The position numbers and the translations under genes were made by a program. From Candidatus Bathyarchaeota archaeon (lineage in GTDB: Archaea > Thermoproteota > Bathyarchaeia > Bathyarchaeales > Bathycorpusculaceae): a stretch of 64,000 bases of DNA. Positions 25,035 to 51,829 of the stretch are shown here, one piece after another. The notes beneath the pieces were generated by a model. That model did no database searches, was not told the DNA's origin, and saw nothing but the letters and a program-made list of their open reading frames with translations. The DNA lies in the NCBI GenBank assembly GCA_963733095.1, contig CAVTBV010000007.1, positions 1 to 64,000 of the forward strand, read 5' to 3'. Position 1 is the first letter of the stretch, and each line of letters opens with the position of its first letter.

Positions 25035-25070
25035 AGTTAAGTGTCAATATTAACAAGATAGAGATTTGCG

Positions 25071-27219: not shown

Positions 27220-27227
27220 GAAGTGTG

Positions 27228-35099: not shown

Positions 35100-35521
35100 T
35101 CGACCCAGAAATAGAAAGAATCCAGAGAAAAAAGATAGCTGAAATGCTGGAGCGAGCTACAACGCAAGCTAAACCAACCGAACTATCGGCGGGTAAACCC
35201 ATACCTTTGACCGACAGCAATTTCGCGTCTGAGATCGCAAAACATAGCTTGATGCTGGTTGATTTTTGGGCGCCTTGGTGTGGTCCTTGCCGAATGGTGG
35301 GTCCACTAATTGAGCAGCTTGCAGCCGAGTACGCCGGGAAAGTCGCGTTTGGGAAGATGAACGTTGATGAGAACATGTCGGTTCCAAGCAGTTTTGGAGT
35401 CATGAGCATTCCAACAATGATTGTTTTCAAGAACGGCAAACCAGTCGAAACCCTCATCGGCGCGTGCCCCAAATCGCAGATTGAATCCAAGTTTAAACCC
35501 TTCATGGACAAAACCCAGTAA
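35096..35521 (+). CDS. trxA: Thioredoxin with N-terminal extension
   Basis: DFWAPWCGPC, MSIPTM. Confidence 0.95.
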   Translation: MIDPEIERIQRKKIAEMLERATTQAKPTELSAGKPIPLTDSNFASEIAKHSLMLVDFWAPWCGPCRMVGPLIEQLAAEYAGKVAFGKMNVDENMSVPSSFGVMSIPTMIVFKNGKPVETLIGACPKSQIESKFKPFMDKTQ

Positions 35522-35532
35522 CAGGTGACTGA

Positions 35533-35982
35533 GTGAGCGTCGCTGATAGTGAGAAAATCGTTGCCACCAAATCCCTCCTCTTATCGGGCACATCGCTTCT
35601 TTCGATCTGGGTGGTCTTAGGCACCCTCTCAATCTACCTAATCAACCCGCTCTTCGGCTGGCTCTTTTTGGGCTTCTCCGCCTTCGCAGTTTTGATTATA
35701 ATTCGGCGTTTGCTGTGCAATTCGTGCTATTACTGTAAATCCTGCACCAAAGGATTCGCCAAACTGTCCAAACTAACTCTGGGAAGCAAGCACATACCAG
35801 GAATAAGCAAAGGCTCAACAATCGGCATGGCCACCACAATGTACGCCATACTCACAGTCATCCCCAGCGCGGTACTCATAAATTCGATGCTTAGCGCCTA
35901 CAATCCGGTAAGTATCCTGTTGTTGGCGGCGATTCTTCTGGTCACGGTCTACACGTTGGTGGTTAGGGCAAAAGGCAAATAA
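35533..35982 (+). CDS. 4-TM membrane protein with CxxCxxCxxC motif
   Basis: CNSCYYCKSC between hydrophobic helices. Confidence 0.7.
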   Translation: MSVADSEKIVATKSLLLSGTSLLSIWVVLGTLSIYLINPLFGWLFLGFSAFAVLIIIRRLLCNSCYYCKSCTKGFAKLSKLTLGSKHIPGISKGSTIGMATTMYAILTVIPSAVLINSMLSAYNPVSILLLAAILLVTVYTLVVRAKGK

Positions 35983-36012
35983 AATTCAACCCGAAAACAG
36001 TGCTGAGCGACC

Positions 36013-36207
36013 ATGACTAAAGCCTACATCGACCCCCAAAAGTGCATTCGATGCGACAAATGCAATGCTGCCAAAGCTTGTGCCATAAAAGCTATTTTCC
36101 GCATCAGCCCAGAAGACCCAAACGTTGTGGAGTCACGTCTTTGCCGTGGATGCGGAGACTGCGTAGCAGCCTGTGCAGCTAATGCGGTTGTTTTAAAAGA
36201 GGGCTAA
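36013..36207 (+). CDS. 2x[4Fe-4S] ferredoxin
   Basis: CIRCDKCNAAKAC and CRGCGDCVAAC. Confidence 0.9.
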   Translation: MTKAYIDPQKCIRCDKCNAAKACAIKAIFRISPEDPNVVESRLCRGCGDCVAACAANAVVLKEG

Positions 36208-36347
36208 GCCACACTTTTTTTTTAAAAAACCCTTTTTAGGGTAGTAGTTGAAAGCCAGCTTTTCTGAAATGGCTGTCAAATGTAAACGCTGATAGCACTC
36301 TAATCTCTCGCATTTACACAAGATAACCTCATGACAATTTCAAATTT

Positions 36348-36392
36348 AAATGGGCCGGGAGGGGGATCATAGCCCCAATTTACCAGTTAAAA
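36348..36392 (+). repeat. Direct repeat, copy 1 (pairs with 51118..51162)
   Basis: 39/45 identity with a 26-bp exact core GGGGATCATAGCCCCAATTTACCAGT. Confidence 0.85.
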
Positions 36393-36559
36393 GCTATCAA
36401 GGCTGAGTCGGAGCGGGCTTACCCCTGAAGCGGTCTGAGATCTCCCGTATATTCCATTTTTTTCAATTTTCCTTTTCTATTTTTTGTCGGCTATTTTCCG
36501 TTGGGCTTTTTCAAATGGTTTTTATGTGAGACTATCCTAGTTACGAGTGGTGTTTTTGA

Positions 36560-36841
36560 ATGGTTGAAGATTTTGAACAAGACGATTTCGACATGATTGA
36601 CCCCACAACCAAAAAAGTTCTTGTAACCCTTTCCCAATTTGAGAAAGGTCTCTTGGTGACGGTAGACCTCTTACACAGAAAAACAGGTTTGATGCCTGAA
36701 GCCCTAAACGACGCAGCGCGGCACCTGTTAAAATCCAAGCTCATCGACATACCTGACCCGACAAAACGACATGGTCCCTACGATTTCGAAACCATCGAAA
36801 TAACCGACTTCGGAAGGCAAGTGCTCACAAAATTCGGGTAA
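36560..36841 (+). CDS. Small winged-helix-like protein
   Basis: LHRKTGL...LLKSKLI...EITDFGRQVL pattern. Confidence 0.55.
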   Translation: MVEDFEQDDFDMIDPTTKKVLVTLSQFEKGLLVTVDLLHRKTGLMPEALNDAARHLLKSKLIDIPDPTKRHGPYDFETIEITDFGRQVLTKFG

Positions 36842-36951
36842 AATGCCACAACTAAGCCCTCATCTTAAATAGCAACGATACTTTTTTCACTGATTCTCTC
36901 TTTTAATTTAACGAATATTTAGAGTTTTCAGAAAGTAAATTACTGTGACTT

Positions 36952-37075
36952 TTAGAGAAGTTTTGAAAAGTCATCGTATACTTTTTTCTCGTCACCGACG
37001 AAAAACACCATTACTGTATTTTGGTCCAAGTCTATTTCATAGAGCGCTCGGTAGTCACCTGATCCTGACTCTTTA
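36952..37075 (-). pseudogene. RelE/ParE toxin C-terminal remnant
   Basis: RVRI/GDYRALYEIDLDQNTVMVFFVGDEKKVY with a 1-nt shift; N-terminus missing. Confidence 0.6.
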
Positions 37076-37131
37076 ATTTGGACGGTTAAAAGCCTTAAGA
37101 TTATACTCTTACTCTAAGGTGGAGCATTAGA

Positions 37132-37587
37132 TTATTTAAGATAGTTATCAAGATTTGTTTCTCCTACTGTAAGCTCAGGAAATGTCGCGATCAGCTGTTT
37201 TGCTAATTCAACTATTATCATTTTAACTCCCTCTGTTTTCTCAACATTAATCTTTGGATAAAGCCTAACGACAACTCCATCGTTTCTTCCAGATATCATC
37301 GTAAGAAAAGAGGCCTTCTTGTCAGAATCAATCTCTAACGAATAGAAAAGTATCGCATTTTTTTCGCGCTCAAGATAAACATCCATGGTTTTTAGAATAC
37401 TGTTTTTGTTTCTTATCATCAACGGTTTTAATTCTTTGAAAATGTTCTCGATTGCAGCTTTACCATTTAGAACAACATGAGGCAAAACAACTCCTCCCTT
37501 ATTCAAGTGATTAGGGGAAGCAAATATTAGATTTTCCAATCTTAAAAGCAAATGACCAAACAAACAACACAAAACGTAGCTGTTCAT
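37132..37587 (-). CDS. Hypothetical protein (true start probably near LPHVVLNGK)
   Basis: Globular-looking ORF; GGGAGG precedes the internal start region. Confidence 0.6.
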   Translation of the reverse strand: MNSYVLCCLFGHLLLRLENLIFASPNHLNKGGVVLPHVVLNGKAAIENIFKELKPLMIRNKNSILKTMDVYLEREKNAILFYSLEIDSDKKASFLTMISGRNDGVVVRLYPKINVEKTEGVKMIIVELAKQLIATFPELTVGETNLDNYLK

Positions 37588-37759
37588 GTACTCAAAGTTG
37601 CCGTCTATTGCAATAGCAAAACTTTTTTCGCCCGAATTAGCTACTTTGAAATCTGGACTGAAGAATACTAAGCCCGCAATGCCAGAGATAAGAAGGCTTA
37701 AGAAACAGGCACACCTCTCCTTTTTTAATCATCCACTTAGAGTATATCGAGGGCGTTAG

Positions 37760-38753
37760 ATGAGGGAATTCGCGAAACCTGTTGTAGTAGTCTCAAAATG
37801 TATTACTTTCGAACCTGTTAGATGGAATGGCCAAATAATAGCAAGCGAATTCGTGGAAAAACTTAAGCCCTACGTAAATTTTATCCCTGTTTGTCCAGAA
37901 ATTGAAATAGGACTAGGCGTGCCCCGCGACCCTGTCAGAATAGTATTAGTAAACGGAGAAAAAAAACTCCTGCAACCAGCGACGGGTTTCGACTTCACAG
38001 ACGAAATGACAAAGTTCTCAGAGTTTTTCTTGGATTCTTTGGATGCAGTTGACGGTTTCATACTCAAGAGTGCCTCTCCGAGTAGTGGTTTTAAAAATGT
38101 AAAAGTCTATCCAAGCATTGAGAGAGTCTCGTCAATAGAGAAAGCTCCTGGCTTCTTTGGAGGAGCAGTTCTTCAGAAATTTCCAAATTTGGCAATTGAA
38201 GACGAGCGCCGCCTGCTTAATCCAAGGATAAGAGAACATTTTCTTACGAAACTTTTCACTTTCAGCTAGTTTTAGAGAAGTAAAAAAATCTGGGAAAATC
38301 AGAGATCTGGTCAAATTTCAATCAGATAACAAATATTTGTTCACGGCGTACAATCAAACAGAGCTAAGAATCTTGGGAAAGTTGGTGGCAAACCAAGAAC
38401 ACAAACCTTTTGATGAAACAATGATGAGTTATGAGACCCACTTGTATTCTGCTTTGGCGCGTACTCCCAGTGCTGGTGCGAACATAAATGTCATGTTAAA
38501 GATTATGGGGTATTTCTCGCATCAGCTTTCCAAGGAAGAGAAATCCTTTTTCCTTAATTCTGTCGATAATTACAGAGCAGGAAGGCTGCCGTTGAGTGCA
38601 TGCTTGAACGTTTTGAAGGCTTGGATTGTTAGGTTCAAACAAGAATACTTATCGAGTCAGACTGTGCTTGAACCGTATCCTGAACAGCTTGCAGAACTGG
38701 AAACTGTTTTCTCAGAGGTTGATGGAAAGAACTACTGGAAATTGAAAAAATGA
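37760..38753 (+). pseudogene. DUF523 (TudS)-DUF1722 (YbgA) fusion, RudS-like, frameshifted
   Basis: SKC..VRWNG, VCPEIEIGLGVPR, SPSSG, EDERRL; 1-nt insertion near 38263 splits it from the DUF1722 half (GYFS...YL..Q..L.PYP). Confidence 0.85.
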
Positions 38754-38766
38754 ATAACTAGGCAAC

Positions 38767-39687
38767 TTAATCAAATTTGTTTTTCAAAAAATTGTTCACT
38801 CGCCAGTCTTTTATTGCCAAGGTAATTGCTTTGATGGCGCTTTTTTCTTTATCTTTGATCTCCAACATTACATCGAAATCGAATTGTTTGGTCTGTTTCA
38901 AAAATAGGTCAAAGTCTTCTATGTTAATTGTTTCGGTGTGTTGCCTTGGCGATCCATTTGGTTCTTGAGAGCTATAGTCAACCATTGGAATCCCATCTGT
39001 TTTTTCATGCCATGTCTTTGTAGTAAGTTTGAAAGATTCTTCAGTTGCTAAATTCCCTGAATTGTTGAGTTTGTCATGAAAGACATCAAAAAGAATTGGA
39101 AGTTGAGTTTGAGCATTTATTTTTAGGCAGTCGTTCAAATCGTAAAGTTTATCATCGTTCTCGATTACTAAACGGCGAATTATTGAATCATCAAGTTTAC
39201 TGAATCGTGTAATAAATCTTTCAGTGCTTTTCTCTTTGTCTCCGTAAGCTCCACCGACATGGATTTGGATCTTTGCCGATGAATCTAGTTTCATCAAATC
39301 AAGTATTTCAGCGTGATATTTGAGTTCATTTTTGCTTCTTTCGAAAATATCCTCTTTAATTGAGTTAATTAGGGTAAACTGGTCTGGATGCATTGAAAGT
39401 CGCATTCTATTTTTTTTAATGAACTGGCCGATTTCTTCAAAATCTTCTTGAAAATACTCTTGCCAGTTGAACTTATTTATCGGATGAGACGCAAAAGGGA
39501 CCAAGTCTGAGGAAATTCTAAAAAAGAATAGCATATGCTCAAGATTGAACTGCAAGATTCTTGTCAAGCAGTCTAGATTATTTTTCATTGTCTGCTTAAG
39601 TCGGGTTTCAGAGTAAGATTTTAGACGAAAAGTGCTGTTTGCGGTGCAGTCAATCGTTCTATTGATACAAGGATAACCTATTCTCAT
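38767..39687 (-). CDS. uvsE: UV damage endonuclease
   Basis: MRIGYPC, FRISS, SMHPDQF, IHVGG, IENDD, MLEIKDKE. Confidence 0.95.
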   Translation of the reverse strand: MRIGYPCINRTIDCTANSTFRLKSYSETRLKQTMKNNLDCLTRILQFNLEHMLFFFRISSDLVPFASHPINKFNWQEYFQEDFEEIGQFIKKNRMRLSMHPDQFTLINSIKEDIFERSKNELKYHAEILDLMKLDSSAKIQIHVGGAYGDKEKSTERFITRFSKLDDSIIRRLVIENDDKLYDLNDCLKINAQTQLPILFDVFHDKLNNSGNLATEESFKLTTKTWHEKTDGIPMVDYSSQEPNGSPRQHTETINIEDFDLFLKQTKQFDFDVMLEIKDKEKSAIKAITLAIKDWRVNNFLKNKFD

Positions 39688-39813
39688 TACTCATCCTTCT
39701 TCCTTAAACTTAATTGATCATCTATCTTAAAGCTCTCCATTTTCGTAGTCACAGCAGAATAGTCTTGCTTGAATGATGAGTACTCTAAAAAAGGAAAAGG
39801 GATAATTTAGTAA

Positions 39814-40326
39814 TTGCTGGTGTTAGAAATGACGAAGGTAAAGATGCCAAAAATGAAAGAAAAGGAGGTCGAACAGTTAATTAGAGAACAATTCCTTTGT
39901 CGAATAGCTTTCAAAGGTGACTTGCAACCTTACATCGCTCCTTTTCAGTACGCTTATGTTAATGGTATTCTTTACTTTCATTTCACAGATTACGGTAAGA
40001 AGATGAGTTTTTTCAAGCAAGAAACTCCAGTTTGCGTAGAGATAGAACGATATACGCCAAATCTTAGCGAATATAGTTTTGTAGTGCTTACTGGAAAACT
40101 AAGATTAGTTGAGGATCAAGAAGAAAGAAAAAAGGCTATAGAAAAGATGGCTGAAATAGGCAAACAGAAAATTTCAGCAAACTTTCTGATAGCTCATGGC
40201 TTTTCACAGGGCTCCGATTGGACCGATTTTACTGCAGACAAACCGATTCTAATCATAAAGCTTGATGAAGTTACTGAAAAGATAGGGCTTAAGTCACCTT
40301 CTTACCACAAAAACTATTGCTCGTAG
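39814..40326 (+). CDS. Pyridoxamine 5'-phosphate oxidase-like (NimA-type) flavoprotein
   Basis: CRIAF...PYIAP...LYFH...GKK...VCVEI. Confidence 0.85.
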   Translation: MLVLEMTKVKMPKMKEKEVEQLIREQFLCRIAFKGDLQPYIAPFQYAYVNGILYFHFTDYGKKMSFFKQETPVCVEIERYTPNLSEYSFVVLTGKLRLVEDQEERKKAIEKMAEIGKQKISANFLIAHGFSQGSDWTDFTADKPILIIKLDEVTEKIGLKSPSYHKNYCS

Positions 40327-40441
40327 AGGAAGCGGGGAGATGTGAAAAGTGCATTTGACGATTTCTCCGCGAAACGCGCTGGATAAGCATAAGAAATATT
40401 AATTGAGAATCTGGAAAGCACTAGATAAGGAGAAAACAAAA

Positions 40442-40693
40442 ATGGCCAAAGGAAAATTAGAGAAAACAATTGTCGATCCCTATTTACCCAGCAAGATTGT
40501 TCCTCCTGAGTATATTCGGGACGTTTTGCACGAAGCAAATAACGATTTTCCAGCAATTGAGTTTGAATATGAACTACCTCACAAATGGCTAGACGAAGAA
40601 TACAAGAGTCGATACGAGGAATTGGAACGCCAAATGATGGAAGTTCTAAACTGGCGATCTCGCTGGTTCGGAAAGCTGGATGCAAACAAATAA
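40442..40693 (+). CDS. Small hypothetical protein
   Basis: AAGGAG upstream of MAKGKLE. Confidence 0.55.
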   Translation: MAKGKLEKTIVDPYLPSKIVPPEYIRDVLHEANNDFPAIEFEYELPHKWLDEEYKSRYEELERQMMEVLNWRSRWFGKLDANK

Positions 40694-40739
40694 GTCACAC
40701 ACAACTTTATTTAAACTCCGACTAATATGCTTAAAGAAA

Positions 40740-41243
40740 TCAGTTCACGTTGAGTGTTTGCCGTGGGCTGAAGCCTATTTTTTTCAAAGACATATCGATG
40801 AATTCGATCTTCTCAGGCTCTACTTTAACTAACTCTATCCCGGTCTCGGGGAATGTCTTAAGGCCAAGTTCCTTAGCAGCTTTTTCCCATTGATACGCTG
40901 CCAATCCTTCTTTAAATTCTGTTGAGTTCTCTCTGGAAATTATCTTTGCTTTTCCGGTGATTTGTACTCCTTTGGCGCTGTCCCAACCTGTGTATGGGAG
41001 GAAAATGCCGATGCTGACGTTGGGATTCTTCTTCATGTTTTCCAGTTTTGTGCCTGGTTCACCCACGAAGTAAATAGTGATTCCTTTGGAGTGATACTCA
41101 ATCGGAGTAGCCCTAGGAAGCCCATCGCCACATGTCGCAAGCACACACATATTCTGTTCCTTAAGAAACCCAACAATGCGCTCCTCCAAAACTTCGGTTG
41201 GCATGTTCTTAACAAATGTTTGATCTCTTGATTCAGAACTCAT
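40740..41243 (-). CDS. Pyridoxamine 5'-phosphate oxidase-like flavoprotein
   Basis: CVLATC...PRATP...TKLEN..KNPNVS...GVQITGKA. Confidence 0.85.
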   Translation of the reverse strand: MSSESRDQTFVKNMPTEVLEERIVGFLKEQNMCVLATCGDGLPRATPIEYHSKGITIYFVGEPGTKLENMKKNPNVSIGIFLPYTGWDSAKGVQITGKAKIISRENSTEFKEGLAAYQWEKAAKELGLKTFPETGIELVKVEPEKIEFIDMSLKKIGFSPRQTLNVN

Positions 41244-41460
41244 AACACTGCACCTTATGTTTTCCTATTTAGCAATTTTTTCTATTTAGGCATAGCGTTT
41301 CCGATCAGACTAACACGATTTGCTGATTCATAATCCTCCATACAAAAACTGGTTCAAGCGATAAAACAAAAGCTGATCGGGTAATAAAGGTCCACGATAT
41401 TTCGTAAAAGTAAGCATTAAGTACCTAAATAATACAGTAGATAAAGAGGAGAGAAGCTTT

Positions 41461-42492
41461 TTGAAACATAATTCATCGATATGTTTTGCAATAGTTGCTT
41501 TAATATTTGCTTCTATTTTGTTGCCCCTGGTCGCGGCTCATGCACCCTTGGGAACAGGTGATAACGAATCAATAGATAAGGCCGCTGTCATTCCAGACCC
41601 TACCAAGTCATGGGCTCTCTATTCCGTGTTAAACAAAGACGGTGATCCTCAATACTACACCTTTACGATCATTGCGGGCCAAACAATCCATGTAACCACG
41701 TATAAGTCCATGAGAGATAAAGACGTAACCTTTACCCCCAGACTGGTCATTATTGGACCAAACGTTACAACACAAGGGAATATCCCTTCAAAAATAACTG
41801 TGCCAACAGGCTTTAACGCTCAATTGATAAACCAGATCGCTCCCACGCCAACTTTTGAACCTTTCTCACCAGGCACATTTACAGGTTTAGCAGACACCAC
41901 CCTTGAGAACCCAACTCCAGGCAAATACTACCTTGTGGTCTTTGAGCAATCCGATACTCCAAAAGGCGGAAATTACGGTTTAGCCATCGGTGACCGAGAG
42001 ACATACACCATTGACGAATGGGTACTAATCCCCTTCAACCTCATGAACATCTACCAATGGGAAGGACAAAACCTCGCACTAATTCTAACACCCATGATCA
42101 CTTCAATAGTCGTTGGAATCATTCTTGTGGCTTGGCAACTAAGAAGACAATGCAACCTTGCAAACCCAATGGCTTGGCTAGGTGCTATAGCTGGTCTAAC
42201 ATTCATAGGCACTGCTTCCACAACGCTAAGCGAGCTAATTTCTTGTGCAACAAAAGTATCGGTTGGAGTAGAAGCTGTGATTACTCTCATCTTTGCACTC
42301 GTTCCCTTAGCCTTGGGGTTCGTTGCGCTTCGGCTGTCAATTAAGAACAGCCAAAAAGCAACCCTTCGAAAACGCATATACTTCTTAATCTTAGGTGTTG
42401 CAGCACTGTTCATTTGGGCTGGACTCATTGTGGGGCCAATACTTGCGATCATAACATCCGTAATGCCAACTATTCTGAGAAAGAAAAAATAA
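41461..42492 (+). CDS. Membrane protein with signal peptide, extracellular domain and 4-5 C-terminal TMs
   Basis: Hydrophobicity pattern; AHAP after the predicted cleavage site. Confidence 0.7.
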   Translation: MKHNSSICFAIVALIFASILLPLVAAHAPLGTGDNESIDKAAVIPDPTKSWALYSVLNKDGDPQYYTFTIIAGQTIHVTTYKSMRDKDVTFTPRLVIIGPNVTTQGNIPSKITVPTGFNAQLINQIAPTPTFEPFSPGTFTGLADTTLENPTPGKYYLVVFEQSDTPKGGNYGLAIGDRETYTIDEWVLIPFNLMNIYQWEGQNLALILTPMITSIVVGIILVAWQLRRQCNLANPMAWLGAIAGLTFIGTASTTLSELISCATKVSVGVEAVITLIFALVPLALGFVALRLSIKNSQKATLRKRIYFLILGVAALFIWAGLIVGPILAIITSVMPTILRKKK

Positions 42493-42626
42493 TCAGGATT
42501 ATTGCACTGCTAACATATCTGAAAATAAAAAAGTAAATAGACACTGAATCATTGTATTGAAAGAGCTGCTATTAAAAGCGGCCTTATGACTTTACTGGAG
42601 AGTTAATGCTTTAGGAGAATATGTAG

Positions 42627-43364
42627 TTGCGTAGACGTTACAAAATATTGATAATTGTTCTGCTTGTTGCCTTAGTGATTTTCACAGGGTTTATTGTTTG
42701 GGCTGAAACCCCTCAATCGCCTATGAAGCAAGCCATCGACGCCTTAAAATCCGATTCAAACGTCACAGTGATAAACGGTCAATGGTTGACTTTTAAACCC
42801 ACAAATGCCAATTACACCACCGGCTTGATTATTTATCCTGGTGGAAGGGTAGATTACCGCTCATATGCACCGCTTGCTCATGCAATAGCTAATGAAGGAT
42901 ACTTAACAGTTATCGTGCCTATGCCTCTTAATTTAGCGGTCTTTGGAGCTAACGCAGCAAACGATGTAATCGCCTCTCACCCAGAGATTACCTCTTGGGC
43001 CATTGGAGGGCACTCTCTGGGAGGAACCATGGCTGCACAGTATACCTATCAGAACCCATCGAAAGTACAAGGGCTTGTACTCTGGGCGGCATATCCTGCA
43101 TCGGGAAATAACCTGTCAAAATACGATCTGTTAGTAACTACTGTCCACGGAAGTAACGATGGGTTGGTAAGTACTTCCCAAATACAGAATTCTCTGGAGA
43201 TGCTTCCCCCAACAACAGTTTATGTTGAAATAGCAGGAGGAAACCATGCGCAATTCGGATATTACGGCGATCAATCAGGAGACAATCCGGCGACAATAAC
43301 AAGAGAAGCCCAACAAAGCCAAACGTTAAACGCTACAGTAGAATTATTGCAGAAACTGAAGTAG
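42627..43364 (+). CDS. Membrane-anchored alpha/beta hydrolase
   Basis: YPGG, GHSLGG nucleophile elbow, GSNDG, GGNHAQFG. Confidence 0.92.
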   Translation: MRRRYKILIIVLLVALVIFTGFIVWAETPQSPMKQAIDALKSDSNVTVINGQWLTFKPTNANYTTGLIIYPGGRVDYRSYAPLAHAIANEGYLTVIVPMPLNLAVFGANAANDVIASHPEITSWAIGGHSLGGTMAAQYTYQNPSKVQGLVLWAAYPASGNNLSKYDLLVTTVHGSNDGLVSTSQIQNSLEMLPPTTVYVEIAGGNHAQFGYYGDQSGDNPATITREAQQSQTLNATVELLQKLK

Positions 43365-43384
43365 CTTCAAGGGCAGGAATTCAT

Positions 43385-43934
43385 CTAAACATGCTTTGTT
43401 GACACGCTTGATTTTGAAGGCGAGAGTTCTACTTCTACGGCTACTTCGTTTCTGCGCATAAACCAAGGGGTAAAAGGTCCGTTATATCGCATTGTAAACA
43501 CTTGACCAACAGTTTCAATTTCTGCTTTAGTGAGCTCTTCCAGCATTTCTTTAGATTTCTTTTTGAATATTGAATTTGACCAACGACCTGAAAAACGCAG
43601 GGCATCAACAATTCTTTCAGGTATTTCAACGATTTTAACGCGTTCATCAAGTGGCTCAGGCGTGGTTTCAAGCGTTAACCCTTCAGGCATCACAAAAGCC
43701 AATGACTCAGATTCTGATAAGACAGGTGCAGTCATGGCTATTTGCTCCGAAACAACAGGAGCTGTCATCGCGATTTTTTGACTTTTGCCTATTATTACCT
43801 GTGATGAAACTAAAGAGAATATTGAAGCCGCCATCGCTATAACCATCAACCCTGGCGATCACCAAACTTGGGTAACGTCTAATCTCAACTTTGTTGATTT
43901 CTCTTAGAACTTCATATTTTGCCTGCTCGACCAT
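43385..43934 (-). pseudogene. SOUL heme-binding protein, frameshifted
   Basis: EIRRYP, FITGNN, IAMTAPV x2, FVMP, YNGPFTPWFMRRNEV; extra A in an A6 run near 43775. Confidence 0.85.
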
Positions 43935-44306
43935 AACCCTATACTATAAGCCCTCTGGATATATTGATTTTCTTGAGCGCATTAGTGTGGTTTCTCCATT
44001 TATTTTATGAATGGATTCTTCATCATTGCCGTTATTGATCTAATTTCAAGTCTTTTTCTGTAAGTGCTTAGGTTTCTAAGATTCTTCTTTTGTTATTTAT
44101 CTGATCGTTTACCTTTCAAAATCTAATCTGACATTGTTCGCTTTTAAGGAAGACAGGAGAACGCGGAAGTTTTTAATCTCGTACCTTCCTAATGATGAAA
44201 CAGTTCAATAACTCAAAAAAGACGCAAAAAAGTGTTAGTGTAAATCCGCAAATTAACAAATCCTTAACTATTGGTATAGTCTATATATAGTAAGAGATGA
44301 ATTTTT

Positions 44307-44723
44307 ATGGCAGATATAGTTGATACCGCAGTAGCGGCAGGTACATTCAAAACTCTTGTAGCGGCTGTAACAGCAGCAAATTTAGTTGACACATTAAAAG
44401 GCAAAGGTCCATTTACGGTTTTTGCACCAACTGATGATGCATTCGCAAAATTACCTAAAGGCACAGTTGATGGTCTATTGAAAGACATTCCAAAGTTGAC
44501 GGCTGTTCTAACATACCATGTCGTCGCTGGAAACGTTCCGGCAAGCGATGTAGTACAACATCCAAAACTAACAACGCTACAAGGTCAAGATCTAAAAGTC
44601 GACACTTCAAAATGGCATATGCACAAGAACGTGAAGATAAACGACGCCCAAATAGTTAAAGCAGACATTGCTGCAGACAACGGCGTTATCCATGTGATCG
44701 ACAAAGTTCTATTGCCAAAGTAG
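44307..44723 (+). CDS. Fasciclin (FAS1) domain protein without signal peptide
   Basis: [26 protein letters not shown]. Confidence 0.95.
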
Positions 44724-44762
44724 AGTAAGGTAGAAATACCTTTTTTTTAATTATTTAGTCTA

Positions 44763-45769
44763 ATGGTGGCTTTTAGCTTGGAAGATATAGTAATAGACGA
44801 TAACCTGCATAAAACTTACGGAAAAAACGTAATTGCTGTAGACACATTTCATTTACGGTTAAGAAAGGAGAGATTTTCGGTTTCTTGGGCCCAAATGGGG
44901 CTGGCAAAAGCACAACCATTAAAATTCTCACAACATTGCTGGAAAAAACCTCTGGAAAAGCCACAATCGACGGACTAGACGTTGATGCTGATCAGGTAAA
45001 AGTTACCTGAATAATCGGTTACTCCTCACAGGAAGTAGGCGTAGATGACGATCTTACAGCACGAGAGAATCTTTTACTCCAATGCAGCTTTCACCACATC
45101 CCAAAAGAAAAAGCAAAAACAAAGGTAAACGAACTCCTGCAAACTATCCGTCTTGCTGAGGCTGCAGATCGACGATTGAAAACATTTTCTGGCGGAATGC
45201 GAAAACGTCTAGATTTAGCCTCATCCTTGGTCTCAGATCCAAAAATTCTGTTCTTGGATGAACCAACAACTGGATTAGTTCCTCAGAGTAGACAAGACAT
45301 CTGGGAGTACATAGTAAAACTGAATCGTGAAGGTATGACAATTTTTCTAACAACACAATACATGGAAGAGGCAGATCGGTTAGCTAGCCGATTATGCATA
45401 GTGGATCAAGGCAAGATCGTAGCCGAAGGAACACCCGCCGAACTCAAAGCACAAGTGGGAGAAGACAAGATCACACTACGCTTTAAAGCAGATGCTCTTG
45501 AAGGCTGCCAAAAAGCCAAGGAGTTGATGGCAAAATTGCAAGGAATCGAAGCAGTGGGTAAATGTGGAGACGGGTTAGCTGCTGAAAACGGCTTAACAAT
45601 AATGACCAAAAACGGCACCGCTTTAGTCACACAGGTAGTAAGAGCTTTAGATGGAGCCGGAATCAACGTGGAACAACTCAACCTTTCAGCTCCAACTCTT
45701 GACGAAGTCTTCCTAAAGCTCACAGGAAAAACCTTGAATGTGGTGGAACGCAAGCAAACAACAGGTTGA
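44763..45769 (+). pseudogene. ABC transporter ATP-binding protein (DrrA-like), disrupted
   Basis: GPNGAGKST reached only after a frameshift near 44858; in-frame TGA near 45008; FSGGM, LDEPT. Confidence 0.85.
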
Positions 45770-46570
45770 TGGGGAAGAAGGAGAAGATAAAAATGATAGA
45801 AATGCTATCCGAAATCGCAGCGATTTTCTCTCGTTGGAACAAGAAATTACTTCGCCAACCTATCTTGATCTTCTTTAACCTTATTCAACCGTTAGTATTG
45901 TTCTTGCTTTTTACACAAGCCTTCTCGGCGATCGGAAACATTCCTTAAGTTGCTTACAGGCTCTAGCAGTTATATTACTTTCTTCACTGCAGCAGTTATA
46001 ATACAAACAATAGCTTCTTCGGCACTTAACACCGGTCTTGGTTTGGTTAATGATTTTGATAGCGGTTTTATGGATAAAATGAGAGTAGCACCTATTAACA
46101 AATCCTCGATCTTGTTCGGCAGACTCTTCAGCAGCGCACTTACCGCAGTCATCCAAGTAGTCATAATATTAGGTATCGGTTTAGCCTTGGGAGTAAACAT
46201 GGCTTCGGGTATCGTAGGCGCGATAGTAATTTTCATTTTAGATGCCCTGTTTGGAATTGCCTGGTCGGGCGTATCCTTGTTTGTCGCTCTAAACACAAAG
46301 AACGCAGAAACCACACTATCAGTGGGTCTGTTGACCACCTTTCCATTGCTATTCTTGTCTGCATGAGTAATGCCAATCGCTCTACTTCCAAGTTGGGTAC
46401 AGCAAGTCGCAAACGTTAACCCCTTCATTTACATAGCTGAGGCGTTTCAATCACTCATCATAAATGGCTTAGTCTGGCAAAAAATAGAATACGCCCTAAT
46501 CGCAATATTCATCGTTGGTGTGCTAAGCTTAGGCGCCAGCATCTTATTGTTCAGACGAAAAGTATCATAG
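45766..46570 (+). pseudogene. ABC-2 type permease, disrupted
   Basis: Three consecutive fragments; frameshift near 45946, in-frame TGA at 46364-46366; LPSW..V..VNP motif. Confidence 0.85.
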
Positions 46571-46633
46571 CTAAAACAAAAAGCCTACAAATTTCACTAA
46601 GCGTCTCAATTGACACAAAAAAAGAAAAGATGT

Positions 46634-46816
46634 TTAGAGTTTTTCAGGGGCGCATAGGTTTTCTGCTTTGGCGGCTGTTCGCATGCAGCCTTTGCAAATG
46701 TATTTTGCATCTTTCACAAGGGGCTTTATCTTCTCTCTTGTTACTTTGTCCTCTACCATTTTGCGGAGGTGTTTTTCATGACCTGGATGAGGTTGAGCTT
46801 TCGACAAATATAACAC
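46634..46816 (-). CDS. Small metal-binding protein
   Basis: HPGHEKHL...YICKGCMRTA...NLCAP; start codon uncertain. Confidence 0.6.
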   Translation of the reverse strand: MLYLSKAQPHPGHEKHLRKMVEDKVTREKIKPLVKDAKYICKGCMRTAAKAENLCAPEKL

Positions 46817-46942
46817 CTAAATTATAAGAAAAGACTGTTGAATACAAATTTTCCACCTAAACCTTCCTCAGGTTCAGAGGCGACCGTTAGTCTAATTAAT
46901 GTAAAATACTAAAATAGAACAAGGAGAAAAGGAGGAATAACA

Positions 46943-47773
46943 ATAAATTACAAAGAAAGACAGGAAATAATTGCTAAATCCCCCATATCTCTTGGATACC
47001 TGAAAAAGTTCAACATAGGCGCAGGGACACTTCAGCTGATTAATGGCATTGTAATTCTAGCGTTGACTTTTCTTTTAACTTGGCCTAAAGGAACTGACAT
47101 CTACACCTTCTACCTAACATTCGCCCATGTTAGTCCAACAAACCCTGCAATTTTCGCAGCGCCAAACCCCCAAGTACTCTTCACTGTAACTCATCTGGGG
47201 CTGCTACTTGCTGCTTTCCCGCTGATCTCAGCACTCGCACATTTCACTATCGCTTTTCCAAAAAACAAAGCATATAACGAAAACCTCAAAAAAGGAATGA
47301 ACCCCTACCGATGGTACGAATACGCTTTTTCAAGTTCGATAATGATCTGGATAATAGCTACTTTTGTTGGAATCTGGGACTTCTGGTCGCTTGCAATGAT
47401 ATTTGTTTTGAACGCTATGATGATAATGTTTGGGTATCTTATGGAGTTGGTCAATCAGAAAACGGAGAAAACAAACTGGTCATCGTTTATTTTAGGATGC
47501 ATATCTGGCGGTTTTCCTTGGGTTGTCCTGTTTGCTTACTTCGGTGGCGCTGTAGCCTCAAGTGAGGGCAGTGTTCCAAACTTCGTTTATGTGATATTCG
47601 TTGTATATCTGGCGCTGTTCATGAGTTTCGCGGTCAACCAGGTTCTGCAGTACAAGGCTGTTGGGCGATGGAGAGATTATCTTTATGGCGAAAGAACCTA
47701 CATTGTTCTTAGTTTTGTAGCGAAAACTCTTCTGGTTTGGTTAGTGTTTATAGGGCTATTCAAACCCTTCTAA
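46943..47773 (+). CDS. heR: Heliorhodopsin, about 276 aa, apparent ATA start
   Basis: NPYRWYEYAFSSS, ALAHF, GERTYIVLSFVAK (retinal Lys codon 47723-47725); frame open 40 codons upstream of the tracked TTG to an ATA 7 nt after GGAGG. Confidence 0.9.
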   Translation: MNYKERQEIIAKSPISLGYLKKFNIGAGTLQLINGIVILALTFLLTWPKGTDIYTFYLTFAHVSPTNPAIFAAPNPQVLFTVTHLGLLLAAFPLISALAHFTIAFPKNKAYNENLKKGMNPYRWYEYAFSSSIMIWIIATFVGIWDFWSLAMIFVLNAMMIMFGYLMELVNQKTEKTNWSSFILGCISGGFPWVVLFAYFGGAVASSEGSVPNFVYVIFVVYLALFMSFAVNQVLQYKAVGRWRDYLYGERTYIVLSFVAKTLLVWLVFIGLFKPF

Positions 47774-47845
47774 CCCCCATTTTCTTTTTCATACTAAAAT
47801 CATTATTCAATTGACCTTTAACAAACGTTCTTTACACCAAGTATT

Positions 47846-47891
47846 GAGCGTTATCCTCATTTGCCGTTTGTTTGTTTAAACTGCATCTGAA
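47846..47891 (-). repeat. Dispersed copy of the 3' end of the 49214..49393 Zn-ribbon gene
   Basis: CATTTGCCGTTTGTTTGTTTAAACTGCATCTGAA nearly identical to 49221-49254. Confidence 0.8.
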
Positions 47892-48050
47892 TGGTTGTAC
47901 CAGTTGTACTCAGTTAAGGAACACACTTACCGATTACAATATGGATCGTTCAATGTAAGCGCGATTACATGGGAGGAGTTAAAAAAAAAATATACGTTCA
48001 AGTGATTTTATGAGCGCAGCACGCTAATCTTGATTTCTTAAGGATGAAAA

Positions 48051-48502
48051 CTAAGTTAAGCCTTCAAGCGACTTCTTTACCAGCTGCTTGACGATTGTTT
48101 TGCTTATGACATCCTTCGCTACAGAACTAGAAAAGTCTAACCTGTCAAAATAAATTCTCAAACTCTTTATCTTTAAGTTTTCAAACACTAAAACCTCAGC
48201 CTGCTTCGAACAAGCTTTTTCCCCATCCATGAAACACTGCGTCTACAACAAATTCTTCAAAGAATGTATTGTCCTCAACCATTATCGTAACTGGCAGCCA
48301 ACTTAATCTCGGCAACATGCTTGAATAACCAATTGAACCATTTCTTCACGCCTTCTTTCCCAAATAGTTTTACGCTGAGAAGTTCAATTTCACAATCATC
48401 AGCAAACCTTTCAACAATCGTGGGCAGATCTTTGCTTTCCAAAGCTTTGTCAAGAACCATAGCTGCCTTACGTATCTCTTCAGATAAATCAACACTGTTC
48501 AA
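48051..48502 (-). pseudogene. NTF2/SnoaL-like protein, frameshifted
   Basis: FADDCEI...GKEGVKKW continues after shifts into FFEEFVV...KIKSLRIYFDRLD. Confidence 0.75.
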
Positions 48503-48584
48503 AATTAATCACCCTTCTTTCAGTAAAGAAGTTAGCGTACTCTGGTAAATGGGTTTTTGGGTTTAGAGCACGCAACATAATGGA

Positions 48585-49118
48585 TCAAGAACTTAAAGTC
48601 TCGATTAATTTCCTATACCGTTTGTTAGTGAAATTCCGATCGAATTCTATAAAATCGTCAAGCATTTTCTCCTGCTCTTTGGTAGAGAAATATTTCATAG
48701 AAGGATAAAAGAACAACTCATCTTCTTTCCGAATGTGTTTTGGATAGAGATCAATCAACGTTTTCAACAGGCTGATGATGCCACCAAGTGTCTCCGTTTT
48801 TCCTGCAACATAGTCTTCCTTTAGACTATCTAGGCTTTTCACCGTTTTTCTTGCTAAAGCATGCTCCATTACTAATTCAAGCATAATCTTTTGATCAATA
48901 TCTGATAGTTTCTTGCTTGAGAGCCCCTTAAAGAGGATGCCCTCTTCTTTACCATGATGATATCTATCTGCATAAGTTCTAAAAAAATCAACTGCAACAA
49001 CAATAAAGTTCGAGTCAATTTTTTCACTGACAACTATTCTTTTCATTTCTTTTTCTAAAAGTTTAACCATCTGCTCAATCAAACGATGCTCACTAATTAG
49101 AATCTCTACAGCCAACAT
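48585..49118 (-). CDS. Hemerythrin (HHE) domain protein
   Basis: EHRLI, HHGKEEGILF, EHALAR, HIRKEDELF. Confidence 0.9.
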   Translation of the reverse strand: MLAVEILISEHRLIEQMVKLLEKEMKRIVVSEKIDSNFIVVAVDFFRTYADRYHHGKEEGILFKGLSSKKLSDIDQKIMLELVMEHALARKTVKSLDSLKEDYVAGKTETLGGIISLLKTLIDLYPKHIRKEDELFFYPSMKYFSTKEQEKMLDDFIEFDRNFTNKRYRKLIETLSS

Positions 49119-49213
49119 GACAAGAACACTCTTGTTAAGATAAGCACGTCGTAATGTTTTAAGGTTTTACAGCCCTGTTTGTCGGCTGGCCTCGAGACTA
49201 ACTATTACGGACA

Positions 49214-49393
49214 CTACTCCCATTTGCCGTTTGTTTGCTTAAACTGCATGTGAACCACACGGCAATCTTCACACCAAATCCTGTTCATCTTCGAAACCGG
49301 ACTTTCATGGGTGTCTTTGGTGTAGTGGCGGGTTTCTTTCTTGCAGACAGGACTCATTAGCCATCCTGCAAAGTGCGCGTCAGCTTGTGTCAA
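49214..49393 (-). CDS. 59-aa Zn-ribbon-like microprotein not in the ORF track, possibly degenerate
   Basis: MTQADAHFAGWLMSPVCKKETRHYTKDTHESPVSKMNRIWCEDCRVVHMQFKQTNGKWE; SPVC...CEDC. Confidence 0.5.
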   Translation of the reverse strand: MTQADAHFAGWLMSPVCKKETRHYTKDTHESPVSKMNRIWCEDCRVVHMQFKQTNGKWE

Positions 49394-49840
49394 TAAAATG
49401 CACGCTATGTCTTAATCAGTACGTGGGTTCAAATCAGTCCACTGCCTAATTGCCAGAATAACACAGGCTAAAACCTCAATCAAGAAGTTGTTTTGGTTCT
49501 CACCAAAATTAATTGGATTCGAACTAAAAATGGTTCAGGTCTCTACCGGACTTACCTTCAAACGTGTAGGAGCCAAGCCTTTGGGAGCCAATTTTATTTG
49601 TAATATTCAGCCTAATTTATCAACTCTCGGAACCCACGCGAAGATTTCTCAATTCTTAACCACTTTCAGCTTTTTGTTGAAAACAGTTTTTCCTGTTACT
49701 GCGTGTGTATTTTACCTCTTACAAATCATTTGGAAAAAGTCAAGTTTCTTCCACTGGTGACATCCAGCTTTCAAATCAGCCGTCCAATTTATATGCCTCA
49801 AGCCTAAAACAAAGCCAGTCATTCGAGGAGTAATTGATAG

Positions 49841-50622
49841 ATGAAGATTTTAATATGTGGCAAAGGCGGCAGCGGAAAAAGCACCGTTGCTTCTCTGTTA
49901 GCCAAGAACCTGCAAGTCGAAGGTTACCGCGTCTTAGTTGTTGATGCTGACGAATCAAACTATGGCCTCAGTGCTCAACTGGGTCTGGAAGCCCCCAAAG
50001 AGATCATGGAGCAACTTGGCGGTAAGAAGGCGGTGCAGGGCAAAATGGGTAGAGTTCTCGGTGATGGCCACAAAGCGCCGGTATTCACTGAGTTATGGCG
50101 CATAGAAGATATACCTTCTGAAAGCCTTGCAAGAAAAGACAGCCTGTATTTGGTGCAGATTGGAAAAGTCAAGCATTACGGGGAGGGATGTGCCTGTCCC
50201 ATGGGTGTGCTTTCCAAAGATTTTCTCAACCACCTAACCCTGGGGGCAAAGGATGTTGCTATCATTGACACTGAAGCAGGATAGAACATTTAGGCCGAGG
50301 CATAGCCGGCAGCGTAGACCTTATTCTCTGCGTTATTGATCCCTCTTATGAGTCGATTAGGCTGTCAGAAAAAATATCTGCCATGGCAAAAGAAAGCAAA
50401 AAACCCATACACTTCATAATCAACAAAGCAGAGGGAACCCTTGCAGAGAAAATGACTGTTAAAGTTGGCAAAGAAAAGGTTATCGGCATCGTAGCTTTCA
50501 GCCCATCCGTACAGGAAAAGGGACTACTCGGCCAAGCACTTGATGCCACCTCACTCAATATCGCAGCCGTCACTAGCTTTGTCCTCCACACTTTAAACGA
50601 AAAACAAACTCCTACTTCTTGA
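49841..50622 (+). pseudogene. cooC: CooC/AcsF-like Ni-insertion ATPase, frameshifted
   Basis: GKGGSGKST, DADES, GCACP, DTEAG/IEHLGRG split by a 1-nt deletion near 50280. Confidence 0.85.
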
Positions 50623-51117
50623 GGCTGAATTGATGAAAAGCCGCGAAGACCTTGCCGAGCCCTGTACTTGTTAATATTGTTAGGTAACTTCAGATTTTGT
50701 TTTTACAGTTCACTAAACTATTTCTTGCTAAAAGCAACCATTTTAGGGGTCTTTGGAGTGAAATAGGGCAAATTTTGGGCTTAATCTTGAAATATATCTT
50801 AATATCTAATTCAAATAATAGAATAATTGAGGCTGCAAAAGGCTCTGTCAACCAGCAAAATAAGGGTTTAGCATTTTTTCCTCTTCTCCTTCAAGTAGTT
50901 AAGAGCCTAAGCAACCCCCTTCTCAAATAAACCTTTAACACTCATAACGTGGGCTGGTCATTCTCTGTTTCATTCATAAAATTGTTTTAATTAGAAATAC
51001 CCAAACAATAGGGTAAAACATAAATTAGTGAGACGACAACTTCCCAAAAAGCCCATAAGAATCCCCATTTCAACTATGTAGACTTTACACAAAATAAAGC
51101 AAAACAATGATTTGGTA

Positions 51118-51162
51118 AAATGGTATTGGAAGGGGATCATAGCCCCAATTTACCAGTAAAAA
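51118..51162 (+). repeat. Direct repeat, copy 2 (pairs with 36348..36392)
   Basis: 39/45 identity, offset 14770 bp. Confidence 0.85.
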
Positions 51163-51262
51163 TGGGTGACGGGCTGCATTTTCCACGAGGTAAAGCTCTC
51201 TTGGCATTATTGGGTCCATTTTCAAAACTCTTAAGTCTGCGTAGCGTAGAAATAGGTTTAGT

Positions 51263-51829
51263 ATGACAAAGAGATCTGTAGCCTCCATTGTCATTGCCAA
51301 TTTCGTAATGGGTTTGTTTCTTTATCTTGCCAGCCAAGCAATACTCCTTCACCTTGCTTCAACTCAGCCCCATCTAACAATTACAGGAGTGAACATCGAC
51401 AAAATCGACATAGGCGCTGTAGCTTCTTCATCGCCTACGCCACTTATCATTACGCCATATCCTAATTTTCCATTCTACGTCCTGTGCCTTCCTCTGATAG
51501 CAAATGCCTATTTCATCATAAAAGTCCGCAGAAGCTCAACTATGGCAAAAAGATTCCCTGTTTTCATTAGCGCTGCAAATATCCTGATGAGTTTGTTTAT
51601 GTTTCTCTCCAGTCAAAGGGTTCTTCTGTCCCTTGTTGCTGTTCAGCAAAGTTACCAAGGAGTATTTGGAGTTAGTTTTTGGTCATTTTCTACAGCGGCT
51701 GTTTCCGTTGGCGGTTCACCTGTCCCACTGGTCGTTATTGTAAGACCAAACTTACCATCTTACGCCTTTCTACTTTTATTGATAGTAAATGCCTATTTCA
51801 TAATAAGACTTCAAAGAGCAAAAGATTAG
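51263..51829 (+). CDS. Membrane protein made of two tandem homologous halves
   Basis: MTKR..AN..M.LF...SQ...PN.P.Y......NAYFII occurs twice. Confidence 0.7.
   Translation: MTKRSVASIVIANFVMGLFLYLASQAILLHLASTQPHLTITGVNIDKIDIGAVASSSPTPLIITPYPNFPFYVLCLPLIANAYFIIKVRRSSTMAKRFPVFISAANILMSLFMFLSSQRVLLSLVAVQQSYQGVFGVSFWSFSTAAVSVGGSPVPLVVIVRPNLPSYAFLLLLIVNAYFIIRLQRAKD

Follow-up and report, generated by a model that had tools for sequence, protein, structure and literature searches.

Introduction

To our knowledge, the function of heliorhodopsin (HeR) is largely open, and only three of its partner proteins have been shown experimentally. Here we describe a HeR-bearing gene island at positions 37760-49118 of a 64,000-nt stretch (referred to as the window) from a contig of a Bathyarchaeia metagenome-assembled genome (MAG). 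We compare the island with HeR neighbourhoods already described and with its counterparts in relatives.

Several surveys have catalogued the neighbours of HeR genes. Chazan et al. (bioRxiv 10.1101/2021.02.16.431466) report SOUL, including a case on an archaeal Thermoplasmata fosmid, together with AhpC, photolyase, PNPOx, ABC and MFS transporters and tRNA-modifying enzymes, and they infer a retinal route of unknown kind in HeR carriers. In Thermoplasmatales, the Znf-HeRs have UvdE, photolyase and carotenoid genes alongside (Bulzu et al. 2021, PMC8612252), and the authors proposed that HeR works as a light switch in the defence against oxidative stress. Ten neighbour groups, among them ABC transporter, short-chain dehydrogenase/reductase (SDR) and alpha/beta hydrolase, were described by Cho et al. 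2024 (PMC11109279), and in the same work OcHeR binds and light-activates OmrDE, an ABC multidrug exporter of its own operon. As presented in these surveys, the neighbours serve the defence against light-induced oxidative stress in monoderm cells. For the lineage studied here, Pan et al. 2020 (PMC7110647) reported transcribed HeRs in Bathy-6 and Bathy-8 with an incomplete retinal pathway and inferred a micro-oxic, possibly light-exposed niche. Meanwhile, genes of the tRNA-desulfurizing RudS type lie in bacterial light-responsive operons with photolyase and LitR (PMC11417400).

The island resembles these systems in many respects. Like the surveyed loci, HeR loci of Bathyarchaeia have SOUL, PNPOx, AhpC, ABC, tRNA-modifying enzymes, UvdE, SDR and hydrolase genes beside HeR. 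The surveys centre on Actinobacteria, Chloroflexi, Firmicutes and Thermoplasmata, whereas our loci come from Bathyarchaeia, for which we found no neighbourhood named in their accounts. The most HeR-specific neighbours of the surveys, DegV and DUF2177, are not among the recurrent families here. As in the OcHeR-OmrDE pair, the HeR gene directly follows ABC exporter genes on the same strand. However, OmrDE consists of heterodimeric half-transporters, while here ATPase and permease are separate proteins of a putative DrrAB-like ABC-2 exporter, accompanied by FAS1 and SOUL. The HeRs of Pan et al. belong to the same lineage and likewise lack a complete retinal pathway; the gene neighbourhoods, the start-codon peculiarity and the gene decay described below are not among the points made in that paper, as far as its account was available.

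The linkage of HeR to SOUL, PNPOx, ABC, UvdE, hydrolase and SDR genes is thus already published for other taxa, with similar neighbourhoods in 10.1101/2021.02.16.431466, PMC8612252 and PMC11109279. A reading made from the DNA letters alone (the sequence-only reading) had proposed the island as an undescribed system, which is overstated; our finding is a lineage-specific variant of published HeR neighbourhoods. In the literature searched, we found no paper joining 'heliorhodopsin' with 'fasciclin' or 'DUF1722', although supplementary tables may list them, or Bathyarchaeia neighbourhoods.

Results

Genomes and loci

The source genome (G000) has 2.84 Mb in 16 contigs and is 95% complete. We identified genes by Pfam and NCBIfam profile scans of the open reading frames (ORFs) of the window. 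For comparison, 80 Bathyarchaeia HeR loci with up to 10 kb of flank were fetched, which gives 81 loci with the window; dereplication at 90% HeR identity left 47 clusters. The phyletic pattern was drawn from 81 genomes of the genus, whose members are not independent of one another. Below, L denotes a HeR locus, G a genome, C a contig of G000 and X a metagenome or RNA run; G012 is a close relative that served as the reference for lesions.

The records of the closest HeR loci are titled as soil, palsa, peat and wetland MAGs of Bathyarchaeota or Bathyarchaeia, two of them 'Bathy6'. Together with the run labels, these records place the relatives in soil, peat and wetland and not in deep sediment. 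Among the runs, only three DNA runs count towards this habitat evidence, and those with small word shares were left aside.

Seven gene families recur around heliorhodopsin

All genes that the sequence-only reading had named in the island are present in the Pfam scan (Table 1). It had taken them for one coherent module, and it would have given up this view had the genes been unlinked in other genomes. Searching the loci with intact reference proteins revealed that the linkage recurs across the 81 HeR loci. Within 6 kb of HeR, SOUL is present in 32/81 loci (13/47 clusters), FAS1 in 22 (10 clusters), PNPOx_A in 17 (12), the ABC-2 permease in 14 (6), the RudS-like gene in 11 (7), UvdE in 11 (7) and the hydrolase in 8 (3). 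Other recurrent families are ABC ATPase (13 of the 47 clusters), DUF6512 (7), AhpC (6) and SDR (5), as well as nitroreductase; an RDH-like SDR adjoins HeR in 7/81 loci. From the copy numbers in G000, a given family would fall by chance within 6 kb of a randomly chosen position in 0.5-1.8% of cases, a figure that rises to about 13% for generic ABC ATPases.

When all ORFs within 6 kb of HeR were clustered without bias, the same families came out on top. The clustering counted SOUL in 29 loci, ABC ATPase in 20, FAS1 in 18, PNPOx_A in 16, ABC-2 permease in 13, TudS-DUF1722 in 11, DUF6512 in 10 and UvdE in 8, followed by SDR, hydrolase and P-type ATPase with 7 each and AhpC with 6. In G000, the UvdE, RudS-like, PNPOx_A and hydrolase genes are single-copy, SOUL occurs in 2 places and FAS1 in 4. 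SOUL, FAS1, ABC-2 permease, PNPOx_A, RudS-like, UvdE and hydrolase are linked to HeR non-randomly.

Not every gene of the island takes part in this linkage. The SnoaL-like and hemerythrin genes are near HeR in 1/81 loci each, namely the window, and the 343-aa membrane protein is near HeR in 3/81. These three lie outside the recurrent set, and the membrane protein is probably outside the module.

The gene order and orientation differ widely among the HeR loci, so the neighbourhood is not one inherited arrangement. The same families return, newly arranged, beside HeRs only 63-70% identical to the window HeR. Three arrangements stand out. SOUL and HeR are divergent with gaps of 100-200 nt; HeR and the RudS-like gene are convergent with gaps of 44-132 nt in 6 loci; and FAS1, ABC ATPase, permease and HeR are co-directional, with SOUL between the permease and HeR in L025, L027 and L040. 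ABC, permease and HeR lie on one strand in the window and in L020, L023, L025, L027, L031, L034, L040, L044, L050 and L067. Complex prediction for HeR of L024 (63-row alignment) and its adjacent SOUL (27 rows) returned no answer, with a score of 0.00, and is evidence neither way.

In addition, two membrane families that the window lacks accompany HeR in relatives (L068:733-1524, L082:7344-7874 and relatives). The DUF6512 family is found in 10/81 HeR loci and has no copy in G000, and a 263-aa membrane protein without Pfam match is found in 5/81 loci. At C12:105058-106930, G000 carries a nitroreductase together with a PNPOx_B-like fragment (aa 93-166 only) and an SDR that shares 94% identity with the one adjoining HeR in L020; this group appears to be a dispersed part of the set.

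Sub-modules are separable from heliorhodopsin

HeR scores above the cut-off in 23/81 genomes of the genus, and 2/16 genomes sampled from other families of the order carry it. SOUL and HeR occur together in 17 of the genus genomes, SOUL only in 4, HeR only in 6 and neither in 54. When both are present, SOUL lies within 4 kb of HeR in 16/17 genomes. True UvdE (E 1e-19 or better) is found in 19 genus genomes, 11 of them with HeR, and DUF1722 in 12, 8 of them with HeR; DUF1722 adjoins UvdE in 8/10 genomes having both.

The description of the island as HeR-centred goes too far at this level. A trio of PNPOx_A, UvdE and RudS-like genes occurs without HeR in G061 and G092, a set of PNPOx_B, SOUL, SDR and AhpC occurs without HeR in G045, and UvdE lies within 10 kb of HeR in only 5/11 genomes with both. 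Since the sub-modules are separable across genomes, the island is composite.

One locus displays how the parts come apart. In G083 (L099, C18:4700-11800), a HeR remnant (aa 1-68 and 73-114) stands beside broken FAS1, ABC and permease genes, and at the same locus SOUL, PNPOx_A, UvdE and the RudS-like gene are intact. The Pfam genome search scored G083 as HeR-negative despite the remnant. Of the sub-modules, it is the co-directional exporter unit whose decay accompanies that of HeR.

The heliorhodopsin gene keeps a probable non-AUG start

The window HeR matches PF18761 at 271.4 bits against a cut-off of 26.7, and at 286.8 bits in the genome search. It retains the Lys of SFVAK, which we take to be the retinal Schiff base residue in helix 7, and the Glu of RWYEY, presumably the counter-ion in helix 3; both are invariant in 63 aligned HeR sequences.

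The reading frame is open as far back as an ATA at 46943, with a GGAGG 7 nt ahead of it (window 46931-46945), and no ATG, GTG or TTG is present at the homologous start in the window. A near-cognate codon at this position, with GGAGG kept, was found in 14/81 HeR loci (ATA in 11, ATT in 1, ATC in 1, TTA in 1), which are the window, L019-L023, L026, L027, L031-L033, L041, L045 and L050, all in the clade nearest the window. Other relatives start HeR with ATG, TTG or GTG. Against six relatives, the ratio of nonsynonymous to synonymous substitution rates (dN/dS) of HeR is 0.03-0.06 at dS 0.43-0.60, which argues that the gene is expressed. We considered a lost start codon as a sign of decay and rejected it, because the near-cognate codon is conserved and purifying selection is strong. 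HeR itself looks functional and not decayed, judging from its sequence, and its start is probably a conserved near-cognate (non-AUG) codon with probably low expression. A HeR clade with a probable AUA, AUU or AUC start under strong purifying selection could stand as a result of its own.

Signs of exchange and insertion in the island

The block from SOUL to HeR (43426-47891) is 90.4% identical to G012 over 4.5 kb, and core genes at 16900-30000 of the window are 78-80% identical to the same genome. The dS values form a mosaic along the island, even between the halves of the RudS-like gene (against L020, TudS 1.25 and DUF1722 0.39). These observations point to recombination and exchange among species, and suggest that the HeR block was recently exchanged between species.

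Two segments are absent from relatives. The 1.36 kb bounded by the 34-nt direct repeats at 47858-47891 and 49221-49254 (94% alike) is absent from G012 and skipped by related contigs of X3, and relatives carry a single repeat copy. The SnoaL-like and hemerythrin genes that it contains are found in 0/80 other HeR loci and are a lineage-specific insertion. On the other side of SOUL, the segment with the 343-aa membrane protein and the hydrolase is absent from G012, and a related contig joins 41074 to 43426, bypassing both genes.

Five island genes are broken

Five genes, about a third of those in the island, are disrupted: the TudS-DUF1722 fusion, SOUL, ATPase, permease and the SnoaL-like gene. 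The fusion is split by one extra base near 38263, which is missing from the related X3 contigs; intact relatives (L020, L023, L034) have 327-330 aa. In SOUL, one extra T in a T-run near 43774 causes a frameshift. In the ATPase, a 1-nt deletion near 44843 is joined by an in-frame TGA at 45008-45010, where G012 has CGG. The permease is likewise hit twice: 5 nt are deleted after 45946, and a TGA stands in frame at 46364-46366, where G012 has TCA. The DrrAB-type exporter is therefore not intact in the window, each gene having one indel and one TGA, and intact orthologues elsewhere have 341 aa (ATPase) and 268 aa (permease). Against the DrrA model, the intact ATPase orthologue scores 344.9 bits (cut-off 312.45); the match of its permease to DrrB stays under the cut-off. 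The SnoaL-like gene is spread over three frames by at least two frame-breaking indels; its orthologue in G022 has an intact frame of about 150 aa and lies elsewhere in that genome. The sequence-only reading had called this gene NTF2-like, and a weak SnoaL_2 match agrees with it, with the reservation that the score is below the gathering threshold and the gene is broken.

Contigs of X1 identical to the window agree with it at 44843, having no extra base, and across 45829-46855 one X1 contig aligns with 0 gaps and departs from the window at 1 letter. The lesions at 44843 and 45946 thus exist in reads, and X1 may be the source sample. The lesions at 38263 and 43774 are outside X1 coverage, and those two are possibly assembly errors. 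The dN/dS of the broken pieces is 0.05-0.12, as low as that of intact relatives. Selection on the broken genes is not relaxed, which dates the lesions as very recent, or, for 38263 and 43774, leaves them as possible assembly errors.

We considered two other origins of the breaks. Genome-wide assembly error was rejected as the sole cause. The neighbouring 12.9-32.4 kb has long unbroken ORFs, and in mean ORF length the 12-kb stretch at 42001 is the 4th lowest of 889, to which the naturally small island genes contribute; moreover, the 5-nt deletion and the substitution-type TGA codons are not homopolymer slips, and two lesions are covered by the X1 contigs. An alternative genetic code or read-through at TGA was rejected as well: relatives carry CGG and TCA at the exporter TGA sites, which makes these nonsense changes and not recoding.

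The island in this genome is recently and partly decayed. HeR, UvdE, both PNPOx genes, the hydrolase and FAS1 are still intact in the window. A second, intact ABC ATPase-permease-SOUL operon is located at C9:218000-236000 of G000 (L106), and it backs up three of the five broken genes (SOUL, ATPase and permease). Its neighbours are a PEMT/ICMT/DUF1295-like membrane protein and a PNPOx gene, with an archaeal integrase-like gene about 7 kb off; DUF1295 is a HeR-associated family in Chazan et al.

The RudS-like protein lacks one iron-sulfur cysteine

The TudS-DUF1722 protein had been read as a RudS that removes 4-thiouridine (s4U) from tRNA. In the window it is two ORFs in different frames, not one chain. 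It keeps the Glu of CPE, the SPS serines and the R-x-N motif, but at the position of the third Fe-S Cys it has SPSS instead of the SPSC of bacterial RudS and TudS, leaving two conserved Cys. Ser occupies this position in the window, in 9/9 locus homologues and in 118/120 database homologues (SPSS homologues were traced in L020, L023, L034, L039, L058, L066, L070, L073, L082 and L087, and among P0001-P0120). In RudS_KT, the [4Fe-4S] cysteines Cys17, Cys49 and Cys114 are needed, and one Cys-to-Ala variant stayed active (PMC11417400), which keeps activity of the Ser form conceivable.

With the third Fe-S Cys gone, tRNA de-thiolation by the window protein is not established. On the other hand, purifying selection on the Bathyarchaeia RudS-like proteins indicates that they have a function, and the genome holds a candidate s4U synthase (ThiI-family match at C14:70512, 38.9 bits vs 20.5 cut-off). 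The locus shares with the RudS of PMC11417400 the TudS-DUF1722 order, the position beside a UV DNA-repair gene and a ThiI-like gene in the genome. It differs in that the repair partner is UvdE and not photolyase, in the Ser for Cys114, and in the split of the gene in the window. No LitR/CarH (MerR-family) regulator was among the window ORFs in general scans, while the whole genome was not searched for LitR. A RudS-like clade with Ser for the third Fe-S Cys could also stand as a result of its own.

Chromophore and repair genes in the source genome

RPE65, phytoene synthase and photolyase were not found in the 95%-complete G000, and control genomes were positive for each. The sequence-only reading had noted that the window holds no retinal synthesis gene; in the genome, the search for Blh (PF15461) is uninformative, as the control genomes gave no match either. 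With photolyase not found, UvdE is the only dedicated photoproduct enzyme found in G000. The UvdE and RudS-like pair stands in for the bacterial photolyase-RudS pairing in this photolyase-free genome.

Gene inventory and flanks

The features of the island are collected in Table 1. UvdE reaches 190.3 bits against the 124.45 cut-off of the TIGR00629 equivalog and covers Pfam positions 15-272/275, and its 306 aa compare with 300-310 aa in relatives. The FAS1 domain begins at residue 13, leaving no room for a signal peptide. Among solved structures, the single-domain relatives nearest to it are FAS1 proteins from bacteria and CupS from cyanobacteria, and AstaP (PDB 8c18) matches it at E 6e-15.

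Table 1. Features of the HeR island in the window, with strand and supporting match or state.
Feature	Position	Strand	Match or state
TudS/2-thiouracil desulfurase half of RudS-like gene	37760-38269	+	Pfam E 2e-33; 169-aa ORF
DUF1722 half of RudS-like gene	38337-38753	+	Pfam E 6e-37; 138-aa ORF
UvdE/UvsE UV-damage endonuclease	38767-39687	-	Pfam E 6e-62; intact, 306 aa, single copy in genome
PNPOx-like flavoprotein A (PNPOx_A; Pyridox_ox_2, Nim-like)	39814-40326	+	intact, single copy
PNPOx-like flavoprotein B (PNPOx_B; PNPOx_N)	40740-41243	-	intact; weak likeness to F420-dependent Rv1155 class
343-aa membrane protein	41461-42492	+	no Pfam match
Alpha/beta hydrolase (Abhydrolase_5), membrane-anchored	42627-43364	+	intact, single copy
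SOUL haem-binding-family gene	43385-43934	-	Pfam; frameshifted
Fasciclin (FAS1), single domain	44307-44723	+	Pfam; intact
DrrA-like ABC ATPase (ABC_tran + DrrA C-terminal domain)	44763-45769	+	Pfam; broken
ABC-2 (DrrB-like) permease	45766-46570	+	Pfam; broken
Small Cys-bearing ORF, 57-60 aa, divergent from HeR	46634-46816	-	no Pfam match
Heliorhodopsin (HeR)	46943-47773	+	PF18761; open frame from ATA
Repeat-bounded inserted cassette	47858-49254		34-nt direct repeats
SnoaL/NTF2-like gene in cassette	48051-48502	-	SnoaL_2 E 0.003, below gathering score; broken
Hemerythrin in cassette	48585-49118	-	Pfam

The small ORF upstream of HeR has a C...CxxC...C pattern, of which the first Cys is Arg in the window. 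It is kept 166-336 nt upstream of HeR, in divergent orientation, in 13 other loci, and related genomes contain several sites with DNA matches to it.

Both flanks of the island, 33865-37587 and 49841-52309, contain short or unassignable ORFs, and further fragments are possible there. To the left, besides a weak ParB_N match, a thioredoxin with an N-terminal extension lies at 35003-35521, and orf151 (37132-37587) is split into two pieces in L023. To the right, a 59-aa Cys-rich ORF (49214-49393, minus strand) has its 3' end overlapped by the right-hand 34-nt repeat, and the flank holds a 147-aa piece of a P-loop ATPase (49841-50284) followed by a 79-aa ORF. An Rfam scan of 33000-53000 gave no family at gathering score, and a tRNA search found none in the window.

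Discussion

Our preferred interpretation is an accessory island shaped by recombination, in which HeR takes its place among three recurrent sub-modules that answer a common condition, with HeR as a regulator. We give it a probability of roughly 60%. Such an island would be typical of soil, peat and wetland Bathyarchaeia, and its clustering would stem from a shared condition, namely exposure to light, UV and oxygen near the surface. Sub-module A (PNPOx-like, UvdE and RudS-like) would deal with UV and near-UV damage to DNA and probably RNA. Sub-module B would comprise FAS1, the DrrA-like ATPase and the ABC-2 permease, to which some genomes append SOUL; this unit immediately precedes HeR on the same strand. 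Sub-module C would be a loose group of redox and small-molecule genes, represented here by the second PNPOx and the hydrolase and in relatives by SDR, AhpC, nitroreductase, DUF6512 and the 263-aa membrane protein.

HeR would act as a light-dependent regulator rather than a pump. By analogy with the OcHeR-exporter pair, its most likely direct target would be the DrrAB-like exporter encoded co-directionally, along with the soluble FAS1 and SOUL proteins that accompany it. The photoprotection proposed for the island is plausible and matches published ideas.

Several observations weigh against this interpretation. None of the seven families lies within 6 kb in 33/81 HeR loci, and kinship among the related genomes makes the support look larger than it is. 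In 6/11 genus genomes with both genes, UvdE lies apart from HeR, once at a distance of 1.4 Mb in a closed genome, and every sub-module also occurs without HeR (G061, G092, G045). Most neighbours are divergent or convergent to HeR, not operonic. A gapped-palindrome search, which set 195 dereplicated upstream regions against a background of 1285, found no palindromic operator common to the module genes. The exporter is of ABC-2 type, which is not the class shown to bind HeR, and oxidative-stress families also flank proton-pumping rhodopsins, so they are not HeR-specific (Chazan et al., 10.1101/2021.02.16.431466). Within the window, genes are broken without relaxed selection, and two of the lesions (38263 and 43774) are possibly assembly errors. 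Finally, the RNA run X24 has a few short contigs, 92-99% alike, on HeR, TudS and PNPOx_B, which do not imply transcription.

The same operator search returned enriched upstream patterns, which we rejected as a regulon motif: they were HeR coding sequence and a promoter-like AT-rich box in the HeR-SOUL spacer.

The strongest competing explanation is co-transfer without co-function, in which the island is a flexible region that gathers niche-specific accessory genes through recombination and horizontal exchange, and HeR is a passenger with no regulatory or physical link to its neighbours. It draws on the mosaic dS, which differs even between the RudS-like halves, on the block 90% identical to G012 amid core genes at 78-80%, on the repeat-flanked SnoaL-hemerythrin cassette and on the membrane-protein and hydrolase segment missing in relatives. 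The occurrence of sub-modules without HeR, the failure to find a shared operator and the integrase-like gene near the second ABC-permease-SOUL set on C9 agree with it too. However, a mere passenger would hardly explain that SOUL is nearly confined to HeR-bearing genomes and sits beside HeR in 16/17 of them, that the families return in new arrangements next to HeRs 63-70% identical, or that HeR and the co-directional exporter genes decay jointly in G083. We therefore regard this explanation as unlikely, though worth keeping in mind.

An oxygen-centred account is also conceivable. Here the genes would defend a micro-oxic lifestyle against reactive oxygen species, acting on peroxide, redox-active small molecules and haem, and HeR and UvdE would be incidental. 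AhpC, nitroreductase, SDR and PNPOx-like genes recur near HeR, a thioredoxin and a hemerythrin are present in the window, a micro-oxic lifestyle was inferred for Bathy-6 (PMC7110647), and the same families stand beside proton pumps as reported by Chazan et al. Yet the literature connects UvdE and the DUF1722 family with UV and near-UV (PMC11417400), the redox genes have a photoreceptor as their tightest partner, and hemerythrin is not a conserved member (1/81 loci). In our view such an account is rather improbable.

Chromophore salvage would assign FAS1, SOUL, the RDH-like SDR, the hydrolase and the ABC-2 system to taking up, binding and processing exogenous retinoids or carotenoids and loading them onto HeR, so that an organism unable to make retinal would be supplied with it. 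If true, it would explain why SOUL is nearly confined to HeR genomes and adjoins HeR there, and it would point to a chromophore source for HeR carriers that lack blh. Its basis is that searches of the 95%-complete genome, whose controls worked, turned up neither RPE65 nor phytoene synthase nor photolyase, that SOUL presence follows HeR presence, that an RDH-like SDR is beside HeR in 7/81 loci, that the FAS1 domain of AstaP can bind carotenoids (PMC10147662) and 8c18 matches the window FAS1, and that Chazan et al. inferred an unknown retinal route in HeR carriers. We consider it very improbable, as DrrAB/ABC-2 systems are exporters, the window FAS1 is nearer to CupS and bacterial FAS1 proteins than to AstaP, and the Blh search, whose control gave no match, is uninformative.

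Returning to the accessory island with HeR as a regulator, this lineage gives compact, recurrent and testable candidate partners of HeR in uncultivated archaea. The candidates are the DrrAB-like exporter, FAS1 and SOUL, co-directional with HeR, and the pair of UvdE and the RudS-like protein. The genes of the island have been gained, shuffled and lost between close relatives among soil and wetland Bathyarchaeia, which fits a life at the edge of the lit zone.

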